Shown in pieces: positions 2,607 to 49,232 of a stretch of 64,000 bases of DNA. The DNA lies in the NCBI GenBank assembly GCA_001821435.1, contig MHLP01000007.1, forward strand, positions 1,620 to 65,619, in the 5' to 3' direction. Below the pieces are notes generated by a model. It was not told the origin of the DNA. It saw only the letters and a program-made list of their open reading frames with translations, and searched no databases. The translations under genes were made by a program, and so were the position numbers. The stretch is from Candidatus Lloydbacteria bacterium RIFCSPLOWO2_01_FULL_50_20 (lineage in GTDB: Bacteria; Patescibacteriota; Minisyncoccia; Phycocordibacterales; UBA6899). Positions within the stretch are counted from its first letter, which is position 1; each line of letters begins with the position of its first letter.

Positions 2607-3824
2607 TTGTGGTATACTACCAATATTATGGAACAATCATCACCTCAGGTATATGCAACAGAACGTTTAAAAGCGGGCTTGAGTCCTGATGCGATCAAGC
2701 AGAATCTCCTTGCTGTCGGCTGGTCGGAAGAGGAGGCGAATACGGCCATCGTCGGAGGGCTTATCGCTCTCGGGGTCCCTGTTCCGCCGAACGGCGCGCG
2801 GACGGGCCACGGCAGACTCTCTTCGACCGTTGAAGTAGTGCTCAATTTCTTCTCATTTATCGCTCTTGGTGTTGTGGCGTTCGCGCTGGTGACGCTTTAT
2901 TACCAGATCATCAATTATTATTTTCCGGATCCGCTCATCATTCGTTACGGAGGCTCGGATGTCTCTTCGGAGGCAATCCATTATGCCATTGCTGCACTGA
3001 TCATCACTTTCCCGATCTATGTACTTGCCGTGCGGCTTTGGTTCAAGCGCTTTCGCGAAGATCTGGAAAAGGTGGAGACCAAGCTTACCAAGTGGCTTAC
3101 GTATCTCATACTGCTCGTCTCGGCGATCACCATTGTCGGTGACCTTATCGCGGCCGTATTTTTTCTCCTTCAAGGCGAAGTCACTCCGCGATTTTTCTTA
3201 AAGGCATTAGTTATCCTGATACTTGCGGGGATGATCTTCGGTTTCTATTTCTTAGAACGAAAAAAGATCCAATATCGCAGAGATATCCCGCGCCGCACAT
3301 TCCAGACCCTCGGATGGGTCGCGCTGGGGATCGTCCTTGTCGCGATCGTGCTCGGTTTTATTGTCGGCGGATCGCCCAGCACCGCGCGAAAGAGCGGTTT
3401 TGATACGCAGCGTGCAGATGATCTTCGAACGATAGCAAGCTGTGTCGCGAATTTCGGGATCAATCAAAAACGGCTCCCCGATACCCTTGGAGAGCTGTCG
3501 AAGAGCGGGCAATATGCATATTGTCTCTCGGGAATGGCAGATCCTGAAACGGGAATGCCGTATGAATATCGCATTGTCGTGCCTTCGGTTGTTGTCGGAG
3601 GAGTGCGCCAGGGAGAATTTGAGCTCTGTGCCGAGTTCTCGCTTCAGTCAGAAAGTGTCCCGATCGAGAAAAATGGCTATGGTTTTCCTCCAGACAAATG
3701 GAGCGAACATGGGTCGGGCAGAAACTGTGACACGGAAACGGCAAATTTGGAACGCTATCTTGATGCTCCTCTGCCGGGTGAAAGCGCAGTTCCCGCTCCA
3801 GCCATACAGTCGAGATACTATTAA
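2607..3824 (+). CDS. Multi-pass membrane protein: cytoplasmic N-terminal domain, about four TM helices, large C-terminal extracytoplasmic Cys-containing domain
   Basis: 405-aa ORF; TM segments after residue 85; the N-terminus is duplicated at 374.. Confidence 0.6.
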   Translation: MWYTTNIMEQSSPQVYATERLKAGLSPDAIKQNLLAVGWSEEEANTAIVGGLIALGVPVPPNGARTGHGRLSSTVEVVLNFFSFIALGVVAFALVTLYYQIINYYFPDPLIIRYGGSDVSSEAIHYAIAALIITFPIYVLAVRLWFKRFREDLEKVETKLTKWLTYLILLVSAITIVGDLIAAVFFLLQGEVTPRFFLKALVILILAGMIFGFYFLERKKIQYRRDIPRRTFQTLGWVALGIVLVAIVLGFIVGGSPSTARKSGFDTQRADDLRTIASCVANFGINQKRLPDTLGELSKSGQYAYCLSGMADPETGMPYEYRIVVPSVVVGGVRQGEFELCAEFSLQSESVPIEKNGYGFPPDKWSEHGSGRNCDTETANLERYLDAPLPGESAVPAPAIQSRYY

Positions 3825-41415: not shown

Positions 41416-42585
41416 CTACACTTTCTTTTCGACGTTGAATGACAATGTCATTCTCTGCTCCTTCGGCTCAAAGAGCGTGATGGTGAAGGGGTAAGTCTTG
41501 CCGAGCTCAAGGGCGGAACGCAGCTTCTCTTCGGTGCCGAATTCAGAAATATGTACGAGTCCCGCAACGCCCTCCTCGATCGACGCAAGCGCGCCGTATT
41601 TGTTGAACTTGATGACGACGCCGCGAACCGTATCGCCCTTCTTATATTTCTTTTCCGCGCCTTTCCACGGGTTCTCTTTCAAGACCTTCACGGAGAGCGA
41701 AACTTTGTTCTCTTTGATCTCGATGATCTGCGCTTTCACCTTGTCGCCCACCTTAAAGAGCTTGCGCGGATCATCGACGAGCCCCCAGTCCATTTCGGAG
41801 ATGTGGATCAATCCTTCGAGTCCTTCTTCGATCTTCATGAATGCGCCGAAGTCCACCACGCCGGTGATCTCGCCGTCAACGATCGCTCCCAACTGGTATT
41901 TCGCGACGATCTCTTCCTTCTCTTTCTGATTGTGCTCTTTCTCGGAGAAGATCAGTTTTCCTTCTTTGGGAACTGCGGTGATCATCACGACGGAAAGTTT
42001 CTCGCCGATCAGTTTCTTGAGTTCATCGAGGATCTTGTCTTTGTCGCCGTCGGAAACGCGTGGATAATGATCGCCGGAAAGCTGCGAAGCCGGCAAGAAT
42101 CCGGAAATGCCCTGCCAGTCAAGAATAAGTCCGCCCTTGTTCGCGTCTTTGACGGGAAGTTCGACGATGGTTTTCTTTTTGACCAGATCTTCCGCATCGG
42201 CCCAGATGAGCGACTGACGCGCTTCTTTAAGCGACAGTTCGATGTACCCGTCTTCATTTTCCGCGTCGACGACCTTTGCGGTCACCTTGTCACCCACGTT
42301 CATGTGCCGGATCAGATCGCGCGCATTCTGATATTCGCGTCCGAAGATAAGTCCGATACCGAAAGGCGCCATGTCTATATACACGGCTTTTTTGTCTACT
42401 TTGATGACTGCGCCCTCGACGAGCTCTCCGGGTTCGGGAACTTTCCCGATCTCAGCCATGTATTTCGCCATCACGTGATCAGGGGAGGGAATGTGCTCTC
42501 CGCCGACAATGATGATCTCTTCCTCGGTTGTTTTTGTTGTCATAATGAAAATCGAAAATATGCCGCATGCGTTTCTTTTCCCCAC
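41416..42585 (-). CDS. rpsA: 30S ribosomal protein S1 (four S1 domains)
   Basis: Repeated S1-domain pattern (GELVEGAVIKV..., GDKVTAKVVD..., GAIVDGEITGV..., GDTVRGVVIKF...). Confidence 0.8.
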   Translation of the reverse strand: MGKRNACGIFSIFIMTTKTTEEEIIIVGGEHIPSPDHVMAKYMAEIGKVPEPGELVEGAVIKVDKKAVYIDMAPFGIGLIFGREYQNARDLIRHMNVGDKVTAKVVDAENEDGYIELSLKEARQSLIWADAEDLVKKKTIVELPVKDANKGGLILDWQGISGFLPASQLSGDHYPRVSDGDKDKILDELKKLIGEKLSVVMITAVPKEGKLIFSEKEHNQKEKEEIVAKYQLGAIVDGEITGVVDFGAFMKIEEGLEGLIHISEMDWGLVDDPRKLFKVGDKVKAQIIEIKENKVSLSVKVLKENPWKGAEKKYKKGDTVRGVVIKFNKYGALASIEEGVAGLVHISEFGTEEKLRSALELGKTYPFTITLFEPKEQRMTLSFNVEKKV

Positions 42586-42831
42586 TTATTGAGGAAATAA
42601 AAAACTGCCGCAGGGCAGACTTTCATGTTGTCTGACCTCTAGGGGCCGTATGTCACCGCGACGAGTGCTACCATTTTTCTAAGAGAAATACCTCTAAGAA
42701 AAGTTAGTCGTACGGACACAAACGGGTTAGCCCTAATGGCATGGATAATATTCAATTGTCCTGAAAAGATTAACAGAAAGCGTCTTTCGGCGCAAGGCGA
42801 CGCATAATTACGTAGGTCGAATACAATACAT

Positions 42832-42880
42832 AGGTCGGACTTATGCGCTGCGCATAAGTCCGACCTATGTATTTTTTAAA
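42832..42880. repeat. Palindromic element, about 45 nt (cataggtcggacttatgcgc TG cgcataagtccgacctatg) followed by a T-run
   Basis: Perfect inverted repeat read directly; second copy at 43204. Confidence 0.6.
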
Positions 42881-43203
42881 TGACTGATGCATCTCATTTC
42901 CTGAAAAAAGAGAAGCCCCCGCGCTGTGCACGGGGGGTGTTTCGATTGGCCAGTGAGGCGGTTTCCACGATGAAGCACTGTGGGGGTTGCCGCCTTGTTA
43001 AAGGCCTGGCCGCCGGCGAGCAGCAGCTAGTCGTTCAATAAGATTTGTGCGACCGCGATGGTTTTCACCGATAGGCCTCCTCTCCTAGTTTGTTGTGGGA
43101 AAACAAATGTACAAAGAATCACGAATTTGACCACAATCAGCTCAGCCATTTCCGTGCTTCTTTAGCTTACACGAAGCAGAATTTCTGTCAAGCATGTGCG
43201 GTA

Positions 43204-43250
43204 CATAGGTCGGACTTATGCACGGCGCATAAGTCCGACCTATGTACCGC
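43204..43250. repeat. Second copy of the palindromic element (acataggtcggacttatgc acgg cgcataagtccgacctatgt)
   Basis: Near-identical arms to 42832..42880. Confidence 0.6.
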
Positions 43251-43299
43251 TACCTATGTATTTTGGTATTTTGCCACGCAAATAAAAACGGCCTCCGAC

Positions 43300-44100
43300 G
43301 AGGCCGTTGGGCTATGGACGCTGGTGTTGTTCGAGGGACGCAAAGCCGGATTTTGTACGCAGGCTAGCAACTACGTGCGCACTGGTCGGTGGTCCCAACG
43401 GAAGAACATTCTCTCGTCGATCGCCTGGTCGGCGGACTGCCGACCTTCTTGTTGGTCCTATCGCGTTACCAATTGAATGGAGTCCGCAGGACTTTGCGTT
43501 TGTACGCAGTGGACCGTTTGATATACGGTCTGGGCCGCCCCGAGCGGCCGTTCAGTCGACAAATGGCGTCATTGTGCGCTTATCTCCTTTGCCCGGCAGT
43601 GGGCGAGTGCGGCGACGGGTCGGTCGGTTCATTAAGGAGACCCGTGCCTGACAGCTCCGAATTGGAGCGAAACGGTGACACTCCTGGCGAGGCAAGCGCG
43701 GCGGGATCGATTCCTCCTCCGCGCGGCGCTATCCCGCATGTCGATGAGTTGCCACCACCTTAGAGGCGCCCTCGGGCGCGATTATTGGTTTCAGATCGCA
43801 CTACGGCCAGTGCATTGCGTCTCCTGTTCCTGGCGAAAGGCGGCTCACTGGTCCAGCGATGGACCCTGTGGCCAGAGAGCTCCGACGTCTCGGAGCGAAA
43901 CGGTGCGGCTCGGCCGGGCAAGCGCGGCGTGGATGAAACTATTCGCCAGCACGCCGGGCACTCTACTCGATGAAGCCGCTCCAACATTCGCGGCTCGGTT
44001 TACGCTGACGCGGCGGAATTGAACCTACTCTGATCCCCGCGCGCAACCGTGCATCGATGAGCCGCACCACCGTCATTATCAGGTTGTTGGTGGTTTGAGG
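43300..44100. other. GC-rich ORF-poor region with degenerate internal direct repeats (gagcgaaacggtg...gcaagcgcggcg...tcgatgag..gccaccacc at about 43650, 43880 and 44030)
   Basis: Only short overlapping ORFs in all frames; GC clearly above the surroundings; repeated motifs read directly. Confidence 0.4.
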
Positions 44101-44315
44101 CCTTTTCTACGTAAACGGCATCGTTCCTCCTGGCGTATAGGTCCTTATCTATGCGTACAAGTAAGTAAAAGAGCGCGAAAGATTAAAATTCACAATAGCA
44201 TGTCATTAATATACTGTCAATATGCTTTTCATATCTCCAAAATAGCCCAAAAAACATAGTGATTTCAAGCCTTTTCCCGCTTTCTATTTTTGAGAAGACT
44301 TGCTATACTCTACAC

Positions 44316-44987
44316 ATGATCATCACGTACCATGGGGGGTATTTTATTAAGGTCGCGCAAGGGGACACGGTCATTGCGGCCAATCCTTTTGGCAAAAATT
44401 CATCCAGGAAACCTATTCGTTTTGGCACGCGTATCGCACTCGTTTCGATGGATCATCCCGATATGAACGGCGTCGAGAATCTTTCGCACGGCGACAAGAC
44501 TCCTTTCGTGATCTCCGGTCCGGGCGAGTACGAGATCGGCGGGATCGCGATATCCGGATTTCCTTCTCCGAAGCCGGTCGGACCAAAAGGACTCTTGAAT
44601 ACCATCTACACCATCGAACTTGAAAACATCCATCTGTGTATTCTCGGCGCGATGCCCACTGCCGAACTTTCAGCGGAAGTTGTCGAGGGTATCGGGGAAG
44701 TTGATGTGCTTTTTGTTCCTGTGTTGGGCGGCGATGTGCTCTCACCCGCGGAAGCGGAAAAAGTGGCGGTTCTCCTTGATGCAAAACTCGTCATTCCGAT
44801 CGCGTGGGATGAAGGCGGTGACCCGCCTGCGTCCGACTTCGGACGGGCAGGAAAACAGCTGAAACTTTTTTTGAAAGAGGCCGGTGCGGAAGGAACGGCG
44901 GCCATCGAAAAATTGGTCCTCAAGAAAAAAGATCTTGAGGGTAAAGAAGGAGAGGTCATCGTCCTTGAGCCTCTTTCCCGCGCATAA
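44316..44987 (+). CDS. Metallo-beta-lactamase-fold protein
   Basis: MIITYHGGYFIKV ... MDHPD pattern typical of the MBL-fold UlaG/YtkL-like group; call from memory. Confidence 0.45.
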   Translation: MIITYHGGYFIKVAQGDTVIAANPFGKNSSRKPIRFGTRIALVSMDHPDMNGVENLSHGDKTPFVISGPGEYEIGGIAISGFPSPKPVGPKGLLNTIYTIELENIHLCILGAMPTAELSAEVVEGIGEVDVLFVPVLGGDVLSPAEAEKVAVLLDAKLVIPIAWDEGGDPPASDFGRAGKQLKLFLKEAGAEGTAAIEKLVLKKKDLEGKEGEVIVLEPLSRA

Positions 44988-45526: not shown

Positions 45527-48007
45527 ATGGCGAAAAACAAAGAACACAAAAAAGAAGAAGCAGCCGTCCCTGTCCCGCGTCCGACCGGCGTCATTCCGGC
45601 TAACATCGTGACGGAAATGCGCGAGAGCTACCTCGACTATGCCATGTCGGTCATCGTTGCGCGCGCGCTTCCCGATGTGCGGGACGGATTGAAACCGGTC
45701 CACCGCCGTATTCTCTATGCGATGCAGGAGGCGGGGCTCACTGCTTCCGCCCGGTTCAAAAAATCCGCGACGATCGTCGGTGACGTGCTTGGAAAATATC
45801 ATCCGCACGGGGATTCATCTGTTTATGACGCGATGGTCAAAATGGCTCAGGTTTTTTCAATGCGTTATCCGCTCGTCATCGGACAGGGAAACTTCGGTTC
45901 GATCGACGGGGATTCCGCTGCCGCTTATCGCTACACCGAAGCGAAAATGTCGCGCATCGCGGGCGAAGTGCTACAGGATCTCGAAAAAAATACGGTTGAG
46001 TGGGTGCCCAACTACGACGGCTCGCGCAAAGAGCCGACTGTTCTTCCCTCGGTTGTTCCCAATCTGCTCCTGAACGGCACGCTCGGTATCGCAGTCGGCA
46101 TGGCGACGAATATTCCTCCGCATAATTTGCGCGAGGTCGTCGACGCGCTCATGCACCTGATCGAGGATCCCAATGTGACAAGCGAAGACTTGCTCCAGTT
46201 TGTACAGGGACCGGACTTTCCGACGGGCGGCATCGCTTACAATAAGAGCGATATCCGTCATGCGTATGCTTCGGGGCGCGGCGGCGTCATCTGCCGCGGC
46301 GAAGCGGAGATCGTCGAGCCGAAAGCCGGGCATTCTGAGATCATCATCACGAGCATTCCGTACCGCGTGAACAAGGCCGACCTCTTGACCAAGATCGCGG
46401 AGCTCGTGCGCGAGAAAAAGATCGAAGGCATCAAAGACTTGCGCGATGAATCAGCAAAAGGCGATATCCGCATCGCGGTCTATCTCGGTTCGGGAGTTCC
46501 TCCGCAAAAGGTGCTTAATTATCTCTATCGACACACCGAGCTTGAGAGCGCGTATCACTACAACATGGTCGCGTTGGTCGACGGCGTTCCGCAGACGCTT
46601 TCGCTCAAGTCGCTCCTCGAGGAATTCATCAAACACCGCAAAACGGTCGTGAAGCGCCGTACCGAGTTCGAATTGAACAAAGCCAAAGACCGCGAGCATA
46701 TTCTGATCGGCCTCAAAAAAGCGCTCGATCATATCGATGCGATCATCAAAACTATCAAGGCGTCAAAAGATACGGCCGAGGCGCAGGTGAACCTGATGAA
46801 ACAGTTCAAGTTCTCCGATCGGCAAGCGGCTGCAATTTTGGAAATGAAACTCTCGCGCTTGGCAGGTCTTGAGCGCAAGAAAGTCGAGGATGAACTGAAA
46901 GTCGTACAGGCGCTCATCACAGAACTCGAGAGCGTACTTGGGAGCGTCAAAAAGATGATCGCCGTCATCAAGCAGGAATTACTCGCGGTCCGAGAGAAGT
47001 ACGGCGATGATCGTCGCACCAAGATCGTGAAGGGCGGCGTACAGACCATCTCTGTCGAAGATACGATCCCCGAGCGGGAAACTATCCTTGTTTTTACCGC
47101 GGGCGGCTATATCAAGCGCACCGATCCGTCGGAGTACCGTGTCCAGCGCAGGGGCGGAGTCGGCGTTGTCGATCTCGATACGAAAGAAGAAGATTTCGTG
47201 ACCATTTTTCTTTCCTGTTCGACGCACGAGGATATTCTCTTCTTCACTGACAAAGGCAAAGCGTATCAGATCAAAGCATACGAACTGCCGGAGGGGAGAC
47301 GTGCGACCAAGGGCAAGTCCATCCAAAATTATCTCGCGCTCGGCTCCGATGAACACGTGACCTCCATGCTTGCGATGCCGCGCGAGGTGAAAGAGGTCGC
47401 CAAGCTTTCGCTCCTCATGGTGACGGAGAAAGGCGTCGTGAAGAAAACTGCCGCAGATGCGTTCAAAGATGTGCGACGCTCGGGCTTGCTCGCAATTAAA
47501 CTCCATCCGAAAGACAAACTGCTCGCCGCACGCTTCGTTGAAGACAAAGACGACGTATCGCTGGTGACCTCGAAAGGCCAGTCGATCCGTTTCAAACAAA
47601 GCGACGTTCGCGAAATGGGACGCAACGCGGGGGGCGTGCGCGGCATGAAACTGCGCGCCGACGATCACATCGTGACGGCAGATGTTGTTCGCCATGTCTA
47701 TAGCAAACCGCTCTTGATCGTCATCAGCGAACAGGGTTACGGCAAAATGACGGATATGTCGGAATACAAGACGCAGGGGCGCGGCGGCTCAGGCATCAAG
47801 ACTGCGAATGTCACACCCAAGACCGGAAAAGTCGTTGCGGGCATGGTGCTCCCGGACCGCGAGGGGGAAATTGTCGCTATTTCAAAACAGAGTCAGGTTA
47901 TTCGTGTTTCTTTGAAAGAGATCGCGCTTTCGGGGCGTTCGACACAGGGTTCTCGAATTATGAGGCTTCGTCCAGGTGATAGTATAGCATCGTTAACAGC
48001 TCTGTAA
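45527..48007 (+). CDS. gyrA: DNA gyrase subunit A
   Basis: [29 protein letters not shown] with the active-site Tyr region; C-terminal beta-pinwheel repeats. Confidence 0.9.
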
Positions 48008-48567: not shown

Positions 48568-48599
48568 GAATAAGTAATTTATTGTGTTATAGTATTTTC

Positions 48600-49232
48600 A
48601 TGCCACGGCAACCACGCATCGCATTGGGGGGATATGTCTACCACGTGCTTAATCGTGCCAACGGCAGGGCGCGTATATTTCACACACCGGAAGCGTATAG
48701 GGAGTTTGAGCAGTTACTTTGTGAGGCGAATGAGCAATTTCACATGCGCATCCTTGCTTATACCCTTATGCCCAACCACTGGCATCTACTCCTTTATCCG
48801 CGAGAAGACACGGATATGCCCGACTTTGTGCGCTGGCTCTCTACGACGCACGCGGCAAAATTCCGCAACAAAACCAAGACAGTCGGCGAAGGCCATCTCT
48901 ACCAAGGGAGATACAAATCTTTTGTCATGGACACTGATACACATCTCCTCACTGTTTTGAAATACATTGAACGCAATCCAGTGCGGGCAAAACTTGTTGT
49001 ACATCCTGAGGATTGGGAATGGGGAAGTGCATACCGCAGAATATGCGGGACAAAAAAGGCACAAGCGTTACTTGCGGTCTCGCCAACGCCACTCCCGCAT
49101 CATTATCGTGCGTGGATCAACGGTGCGGAAAAATCTGAAGAACTCGATGAACTTCGCAAATCCGTCAATAAGGGTATCCCGTTTGGGGCGGAAGAATTTC
49201 TCTACCGTTTTGATCGAGGCAAGAAAAAATAA
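48600..49232 (+). CDS. HUH Y1 transposase, REP-associated tyrosine transposase (RAYT)/IS200-like TnpA, full length
   Basis: HUH motif LMPNHWHLLLYP, catalytic Tyr region LYQGRYKSF; flanked on both sides by inverted GGGGACAG REP doublets. Confidence 0.8.
   Translation: MPRQPRIALGGYVYHVLNRANGRARIFHTPEAYREFEQLLCEANEQFHMRILAYTLMPNHWHLLLYPREDTDMPDFVRWLSTTHAAKFRNKTKTVGEGHLYQGRYKSFVMDTDTHLLTVLKYIERNPVRAKLVVHPEDWEWGSAYRRICGTKKAQALLAVSPTPLPHHYRAWINGAEKSEELDELRKSVNKGIPFGAEEFLYRFDRGKKK

Follow-up and report, generated by a model that had tools for sequence, protein, structure and literature searches.

What is encoded by a GC-rich block of about 800 nucleotides (nt) that is full of repeats and holds no credible protein gene? 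The block lies at positions 43300-44100 of the 64,000-nt stretch of DNA analysed here (the window), which belongs to a Candidatus Lloydbacteria bacterium (Parcubacteria, candidate phyla radiation (CPR)) assembled from Rifle aquifer metagenomes. It is part of an intergenic region of 1772 nt (42544-44315) between an rpsA-like gene for a protein with three S1 domains (41416-42543, minus strand) and a gene for a hydrolase of the metallo-beta-lactamase (MBL) fold (Lactamase_B_3; 44316-44987, plus strand), beyond which a hypothetical gene and then gyrA follow. An initial annotation of this DNA had noted the elevated GC content and the lack of a real gene, and had named a structured RNA, a decayed foreign gene and a template/variable-repeat-like pair as possible explanations. 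The description was borne out: GC content in 400-nt windows was 0.603 (43400-43799) and 0.640 (43600-43999) compared to 0.44-0.53 (about 0.50) on the flanks, and no credible protein gene was found. Regarding the explanations, we propose that the block is probably the body of an independent minus-strand unit producing a GC-rich folded RNA of about 900 nt, which represents an undescribed family in Lloydbacteria and close relatives.

Promoter and terminator were located by a consensus scan and, a consensus match being no proof by itself, then compared with the loci of relatives. On the minus strand we identified a near-consensus promoter with extended -10 element (P1; TTGACA, a 17-nt spacer ending in TGC, TATTGT) at 44192-44220, from which transcription would start near 44185, and an intrinsic terminator (T1; AACGGCCUC-GUCG-GAGGCCGUU followed by a U-run) at 43278-43308. 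The predicted transcript spans about 44185-43280 (~902 nt, 59% GC). The minus strand is regarded as sense because promoter, terminator and open reading frame (ORF) orientation agree, and because of conserved G-U pairs (258/286 is GU in 7 of 8 sequences, 324/364 in 4 of 7) that on the opposite strand would become A-C mismatches. With the RNA on the minus strand, the repeat strings quoted in the initial annotation are the reverse complement of the transcript. As a prediction, a separate transcription unit is well supported.

Contigs carrying homologues of the MBL protein were retrieved, complemented by one metagenome scan with a conserved motif, and the relatives' loci are referred to by L numbers (L024 and L038 are the same locus). 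The gene order rpsA(-), MBL(+), hypothetical gene, gyrA is kept in relatives, and an equivalent unit between rpsA and the MBL-fold gene is present in the genomes of eight or more further Lloydbacteria-like organisms (Parcubacteria), with transcript lengths of 341-909 nt. The GC-rich block is clearly homologous in L024/L038, L030, L031, L041 and L042, more diverged in L028 and L037, and probably homologous in L033, which was not detected by the covariance model described below and was counted only for its shared position and promoter and a mini-ORF resembling that of L028. Nine genomes share the promoter architecture, with TTGAC(A/C)-N17(..TGC)-TAnnnT at the equivalent place beside the MBL gene in L030, L031, L038, L041, L042, L033, L037 and L028. 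At the rpsA-proximal end, the terminators of relatives differ in stem sequence and keep the pairing (e.g. GCCCCGC-UUUAU-GCGGGGC-UUUUU in L031).

These comparisons also bear on the suggestion that the block derives from a GC-rich foreign protein gene decayed by frameshifts, for which the raised GC content and plus-strand ORFs of 114-128 amino acids (aa) could be cited. However, ORFs of this length are expected in GC-rich DNA, and all ORFs in the block overlap each other, those on the minus strand being of 47 and 75 aa. In a core alignment of five species, variable sites were distributed over the codon phases as 0.60, 0.65 and 0.59 (p = 0.51), compared to 0.33, 0.14 and 0.90 (p = 3e-58) for the neighbouring MBL gene in the same test. 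All six frames of each of the five homologues examined contain stops, and indels among homologues are not multiples of three. None of the window ORFs matched a Pfam family; ORF 43675-44022 had no homologue among 5.8 billion clustered proteins, and a search of ORF 43389-43763 against 1.84 billion representatives returned itself and one marginal match (E = 8e-4). A pseudogene match in protein searches, which according to the initial annotation would have spoken against a more unusual element, thus did not appear. Furthermore, the occurrence at the same locus in different species indicates vertical inheritance and argues against a foreign gene. We therefore rejected the decayed gene and consider it very improbable.

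The structured-RNA option raised initially gained support from the conserved promoter and terminator, the syntenic homologues and covarying helices, and that the product would be a conserved folded RNA has good support. On the sense strand, RNAalifold predicted 83 pairs, and compensatory changes occur at 18 of these. Five members were used to build a covariance model (R1) of the 3' core, which recovered the window at 43412-43608 (minus strand) with 179.6 bits (E = 8.6e-52), a score as high as that of any member, and also found L042 at 104 bits, L028 at 30 bits (E = 3e-7) and L037 at 27 bits (E = 3e-6); no second match was found in the 64-kb window. Across the eight genomes aligned to the model, 91.4% of cells pair, and both sides change in 20 of 36 pairs, a value reached by none of 500 shuffles, while slid controls pair at 29-40%. 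Long single-stranded blocks (CCAUUCAAUUGGUAACGCGAUAGG, GGCGAUCGACG, AUCAAACGG and CGUCCACAGCC) are invariant, which suggests tertiary contacts or binding of a partner more than a simple attenuator. Species sharing these blocks and the compensatory changes have flanking MBL proteins of merely 70-75% identity.

The 5' half has its own recurrent structure, which was judged from independent minimum free energy (MFE) folds; MAFFT misaligned the helix strands here. Folded alone, each of the seven 5' domains gave the same rod plus hairpin, with differing helix sequences. The order is a long irregular hairpin (GGUG.../...CACC), a GUUUC linker, a short hairpin of the GCCCCG...CGGGGC type, another hairpin, a Shine-Dalgarno sequence and a mini-ORF. 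The helix closing the long hairpin varies with compensation, being GGUGGCA.CUC / GAGUGUCACC in one copy of the window (copy 2), GGUGCGGCUC / GAGCCGCACC in the other (copy 1), GGUGA.GGCUC / GAGCCUCACC in L038 and GGUG.CGGCAC / GUGCCGCACC in L041.

The presence of two such copies would explain the repeats. The initial annotation had reported repeated blocks at about 43650 and 43880 and a partial one at about 44030; all were recovered, with degenerate direct repeats about 226 nt apart. Exact shared blocks are AGCTCCGA at 43653 and 43878, GGAGCGAAACGGTG at 43664 and 43892, and GGCAAGCGCGGCG at 43691 and 43917, while TCGATGA occurs three times (43741, 43967, 44055). Copy-to-copy spacings are 225, 228, 226 and 226 nt, so that the reading frame is not constant between them. 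A profile of the 5' half built from five other genomes only (nhmmer) matched the window twice on the minus strand, at 43960-43803 (E = 3.6e-12) and 43707-43580 (E = 2.9e-11), and these two matches to a profile from foreign genomes indicate that the repeats are beyond chance.

The upstream copy (copy 1; 43768-44071, minus strand) was delineated by profile match, homologue alignment, MFE fold and repeats. It can be aligned to homologues across the whole 5' half, and encompasses the annotated blocks near 43880 and 44030. Its long hairpin domain is closed by GGUGCGGCUC (44068-44059) pairing with GAGCCGCACC (43911-43902); the copy further holds an internal duplication of about 86 nt, which accounts for the partial third copy near 44030, a short hairpin GCUCCGA-GACG-UCGGAGC and a hairpin GGUCCAUCGCUGGACC, the latter being, like the mini-ORF, part of the homologue alignment. 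The downstream copy (copy 2; 43552-43759, minus strand; profile match, alignments, MFE fold) is continuous with the conserved 3' core and includes the annotated block near 43650. It consists of the domain GGUGGCA.CUC...GAGUGUCACC, the GUUUC linker, a hairpin GCUCC-AAUUC-GGAGC, another hairpin, and a Shine-Dalgarno sequence with mini-ORF. The 3' core contains hairpins GCCC/GGGC, CGGCCGC-UCG-GCGGCCG and GACCGU-AUAUCAA-ACGGUC, a two-tier hairpin CCUGCG..CCA-UUCAAU-UGG..CGC.AGG, a GUCGGCA..UGCCGAC-like hairpin and the invariant block GGCGAUCGACG. In the 3' tail (43309-43411, minus strand; alignments with homologues) a hairpin that has a different sequence in each homologue (ACGUAG/CUGCGU in the window) is followed by the conserved CAAAAUCCGGCU and CGUCCA(C/U)AGCC.

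The degenerate direct repeats are thus a lineage-specific tandem duplication of the 5' half of the predicted RNA. Duplication is seen elsewhere in the family: L042 carries (2745-3010, minus strand of the locus) a tandem duplication of a module comprising Shine-Dalgarno sequence, mini-ORF and two hairpins, with the peptides MHFP and then MGFLEHFGR (peptides here and below are given up to the stop codon). L038 carries a 100-nt insertion. Judging from the duplicated 5' half in the window and the duplicated mini-ORF module in L042, the RNA family evidently evolves via module duplication.

Two imperfect direct repeats of 100-200 nt in close proximity are also reminiscent of the template and variable repeats of diversity-generating retroelements (DGRs), and the two to three repeats spaced by about 226 nt, together with breaks of independent assemblies at 43723-43739 and 43960, could be taken as signs of such a pair or of another substrate for recombination at the DNA level. 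However, identity between the two copies is as low as 58%, their alignment has 27 gap columns, and the 80 mismatches involve every base (A 14, C 19, G 21, T 26), so that the adenine-specific differences that the initial annotation had proposed to look for are not seen. Neither copy lies within a protein gene, and there is no target gene. No RVT family was found among the genes called within 10 kb on either side, in agreement with the initial annotation, which had seen no reverse transcriptase nearby. Moreover, no differences across the region were seen among 13 contigs from several samples. A DGR pair was therefore rejected, and DNA-level recombination as the explanation of the block is largely refuted and of negligible probability.

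Regarding the breaks themselves, independent metagenome assemblies of the same organism end at 43739 (L008) and 43960 (L013) or start at 43723 (L005), and L011 has a run of N at 43961-43976. All these positions fall within the duplicated domain, and the breaks might reflect either low coverage of GC-rich hairpins or polymorphism of the duplication.

Within the folded RNA, a Shine-Dalgarno sequence (G)CAAAGGAGA, a gap of 4-6 nt, and an AUG opening a very short ORF constitute the most constant feature after the promoter; Shine-Dalgarno sequence and an ORF of 4-15 codons are conserved in nine members. In copy 1 of the window, AGGAGA (43825-43820) is followed after 5 nt by ATG CAC TGG CCG TAG (43815-43801; whole feature 43801-43825, minus strand), encoding MHWP, the canonical form of the family. 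The mini-ORFs of relatives read MHWPE (L038), MHWPS and further codons (L041), MYWPE (L031), (M)TWIE (L030), MHFP (L042), MHHIRDPT (L028), MHSIRSPTK (L033) and MRSHKI (L037). Third codon positions vary (CAC/CAU for His, CCG/CCC/CCU for Pro), and between L028 and L033 four codons (His, Arg, Pro, Thr) differ synonymously, which suggests, and does not prove, selection on the peptide. In copy 2, the Shine-Dalgarno-like AAGGAGA (43589-43583) precedes ATG ACG CCA TTT GTC GAC TGA (MTPFVD, 43572-43552) on the minus strand; this mini-ORF looks degenerate because of its long spacing (10-11 nt) and divergent peptide.

The presence of an apparently translated, MHWP-like mini-ORF inside the fold suggests that the RNA is coupled to translation or has a dual function. 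In this model, ribosomes would bind at the internal Shine-Dalgarno sequence, read four to six codons and halt against the next hairpin. Since the stop codon lies 1-4 nt ahead of a stable hairpin in nearly all members (2 nt in copy 1 of the window), translation of the mini-ORF would open this hairpin and remodel the fold downstream. Rather than being an inert transcript, the RNA would thereby serve as a switch coupled to translation, or as a dual-function RNA.

A further ORF is found on the transcripts of about half of the relatives. In L030, L031, L038 and L041, a hydrophobic ORF of 67-73 aa lies on the same strand after the promoter and before the structured RNA (e.g. L030 1866-2069, L024 5625-5834). 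The protein has two predicted membrane helices and a conserved N-terminus (LxFLAGLYLGxG); it matched no Pfam family, and a word-based search gave no homologue. No trace of it was detected in the window by tblastn, and the window has lost this membrane-protein ORF, which about half of its relatives encode first on the transcript. Direct reading of the sequence revealed a Shine-Dalgarno sequence AGGAGG with a four-codon ORF ATG CCG TTT ACG TAG (MPFT) at 44107-44131 (minus strand), which may be the remnant start of the lost ORF. In four relatives the element itself is deleted or reduced: L022 retains the promoter followed directly by 3' tail and terminator, in L032 the promoter, a truncated ORF and the beginning of the 5' domain are left, and nothing remains in L026 and L043. 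The element is thus ancestral at this locus, with repeated losses.

Such losses raise the possibility that the block in the window is a decaying relic, i.e. the rearranged 3' leftover of a small membrane-protein operon that is functionless in this genome. The missing 67-73 aa ORF, the stubs and deletions in relatives, and the duplications and one degenerate mini-ORF in the window itself would be in line with this. On the other hand, promoter and terminator are intact, the 3' core reaches its 179.6 bits, copy 1 retains the canonical MHWP mini-ORF, and species as divergent in the MBL protein as given above still share long invariant blocks and compensatory changes. In addition, five members without the membrane-protein ORF still retain the RNA. 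We therefore regard a relic as unlikely, though deserving some weight.

The position of the element suggests another possible role. It is always located upstream of rpsA on the same strand and might be the first of serial attenuators in a composite rpsA leader, each with Shine-Dalgarno sequence, mini-ORF, structure and terminator, in which read-through would tune the S1 gene. Like leader-peptide attenuators, it does carry a short ORF behind a ribosome-binding site and ahead of an intrinsic terminator. The same design is repeated in the next unit, a second small unit at 42910-43191 (minus strand) with a promoter (TTGACA-16-TAAGCT, 43191-43164), a Shine-Dalgarno sequence AGGAGAGGAGG and a GTG-initiated mini-ORF VKTIAVAQILLND (43068-43027) and a terminator (42936-42916), and a terminator-like hairpin lies about 60 nt ahead of the rpsA start. 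However, conserved promoters are located after the first terminator (TTGACA-16-TAnnCT) and before rpsA (TTGCAN-17-TAGTCT), the rpsA promoter and leader are unaltered in relatives that have lost the element, and the long invariant loop and junction sequences resemble a tertiary fold or binding site more than an attenuator. The rpsA gene is 740 nt downstream of the element on the same strand, and no convincing antiterminator was identified. A composite rpsA leader is in our view quite unlikely.

In the second unit, for which Rfam gave no match, a block GCGGCAACCCCCACAGUGCUUCAUCGUGGAAACCGC is nearly identical in L030 and L042, a 19-nt core being exact in both; relatives encode the mini-ORFs VKTSRSSLLSK, VKTPRTTLY and VKTTFRTTQY. 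The unit is flanked by two near-perfect palindromes of 45 nt (TACATAGGTCGGACTTATGC..., 42827-42871 and 43202-43246), and the GC-rich block is placed between these and the MBL-fold gene, as the initial annotation had stated and the coordinates confirm. The palindrome occurs in just two copies across the 64-kb window. Relatives have palindromes of different sequence at equivalent positions (TACATAAGACTTTCTTATGTA in L022 and L030, TACATAGGACTGTCCTATGTA in L032 and L042). A gene for a Y1 (IS200/RAYT-like) transposase was found at 48582-49232 of the window. The rpsA gene has its own conserved promoter (within 42544-42800, minus strand), which reads TTGCGC-17-TAATCT here and TTGCAN-17-TAGTCT in relatives, and its conserved leader ends in the terminator-like hairpin CUGCCCUGCGGCAG with U-run (42618-42605), which suggests attenuation or autoregulation of S1. 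On the other side of the MBL gene, the gyrA of the window (45527-48007) is without intein, whereas that of L032 (5236-8708) carries one (PF14890).

Does the element belong to a known RNA family? The comparison with Rfam (release 15) that the initial annotation had proposed yielded only tRNAs at gathering thresholds across the whole window, nothing relevant at E <= 10 in 42500-44400, and nothing at E <= 1 over the element in the loci of eleven relatives; the models included OLE, ROOL, GOLLD, HEARO, raiA, RNase P, tmRNA, group I/II introns, riboswitches and ribosomal-protein leaders. A search with the window-specific pattern GAGCGAAACGGTN{8,30}GCAAGCGCGG gave no match in viral contigs and eight in GTDB genomes, all of them chance matches in unrelated GC-rich bacteria. 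In the literature on non-coding RNAs of CPR bacteria we found nothing comparable.

Three further candidates were considered, of which RNase P and tmRNA were rejected. RNase P-like strings are present on the minus strand (AAAGUCC at 43497-43491, ACAAAAUCCGGCUUU at 43355-43341, GGUAACGC and GACCAGUGC), and were compared with the conserved P4 strands GAAAGUCC (CR-I) and ACAGAAnCCGGCUUA (CR-V). AAAGUCC is absent from L031, L038, L041 and L030, the strands are about 140 nt apart and thus too close, and the RNase P models did not match; the resemblance is coincidental. A tmRNA was not detected by ARAGORN in the window or in the loci of eight relatives, and the mini-ORF has its own Shine-Dalgarno sequence and AUG. 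A type I toxin-antitoxin system is not supported, given the lack of a hydrophobic ORF in the window and the five members that keep the RNA without it, and no convergent promoter was seen.

Several observations weigh against a functional folded RNA with a translated mini-ORF. Transcription, strand and ends of the unit are all predicted, and folding energy does not tell the strands apart, since in RNAalifold the plus strand folds about equally well (-92.5 vs -92.8 kcal/mol). The alignment used for R1 covariation was fitted to the model, which favours structure; the margin over the controls is nevertheless large. Candidate long-range pairings (CGCGCUUGCC with GGCGAUCGACG, and the 3' tail with GGCUGU) are unproven, the bases concerned being invariant, as in the former, or varying inconsistently. 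As for the mini-ORF, accessibility of the Shine-Dalgarno sequence is unremarkable (P(unpaired) of 0.24-0.65 against a mean of about 0.4, as a single-sequence estimate), the downstream mini-ORF is degenerate, and the conservation of AUGCAC.GGCC could stem from RNA pairing and not from the peptide. Finally, the element is dispensable, being gone or a stub in L022, L026, L032 and L043, and only about nine distinct members were found, all in groundwater CPR bacteria.

The closest parallels are found among the large ornate bacterial RNAs OLE, ROOL and GOLLD, whose functions are unknown or partly known and which were recently shown by cryo-EM structures to form RNA-only assemblies (PMC12286853). The Lloydbacteria RNA resembles them in its length of 0.5-0.9 kb, many covarying helices, invariant loops and junctions, a GC content above that of the genome, a promoter and terminator of its own, and a limited phylogenetic distribution. 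Length, non-coding character, covarying helices and invariant blocks (CCAUUCAAUUGGUAACGCGAUAGG and GGCGAUCGACG) are the features by which large ornate structured RNAs (>500 nt) are described, a descriptive class that implies no homology. OLE RNA is co-transcribed with oapA, and in several members the Lloydbacteria RNA likewise shares its transcript with the gene of a small membrane protein. Unlike OLE, ROOL and GOLLD, it gave no covariance-model match even at E <= 10, belongs to another phylum (CPR/Parcubacteria), and is lost in close relatives. It also holds a conserved Shine-Dalgarno sequence and mini-ORF, which to our knowledge none of the three contains.

RNA domains are combined with short ORFs in leaders such as that of Salmonella mgtA with mgtL, and in the tnaC and ermCL/cat86 leader peptides. 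Similar to these, the element has a folded 5' domain, a Shine-Dalgarno sequence, a very short ORF with Pro and aromatic codons, a hairpin after the stop and a terminator downstream. In contrast to mgtL-type leaders, no protein gene follows in the unit and the next units have their own promoters; furthermore, the ORF is just 4-6 codons long and is followed by about 300 nt of conserved structure, and in half of the members a membrane-protein ORF lies ahead of the domain. Dual-function RNAs such as Staphylococcus aureus RNAIII/hld and SgrS/SgrT are likewise long multi-hairpin RNAs with a small ORF (its translation being inferred here); however, there is no sequence relation, the peptide is far shorter and there are no known base-pairing targets. 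By all tests run, the element is a member of none of the systems compared, and we regard it as a new family within a known kind. Going further, it is conceivable, and we put this forward only tentatively, that it represents a new CPR-specific class of large (0.5-0.9 kb) ornate RNA with an embedded translated ORF of 4-5 codons (MHWP-type), in which the ribosome would serve as ligand or remodeller, modules are duplicated, and a co-transcribed membrane protein may be a partner.

CPR bacteria (Patescibacteria), which remain uncultivated, account for much of bacterial diversity, yet their non-coding RNAs have hardly been studied. Its narrow distribution and dispensability temper the significance of the predicted element. 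Large structured RNAs of unknown function are, however, rare and have historically revealed new biology. The modular architecture, the duplication and deletion variants that mark domain boundaries, and the apparently translated mini-ORF provide handles for biochemistry without culture of the host.

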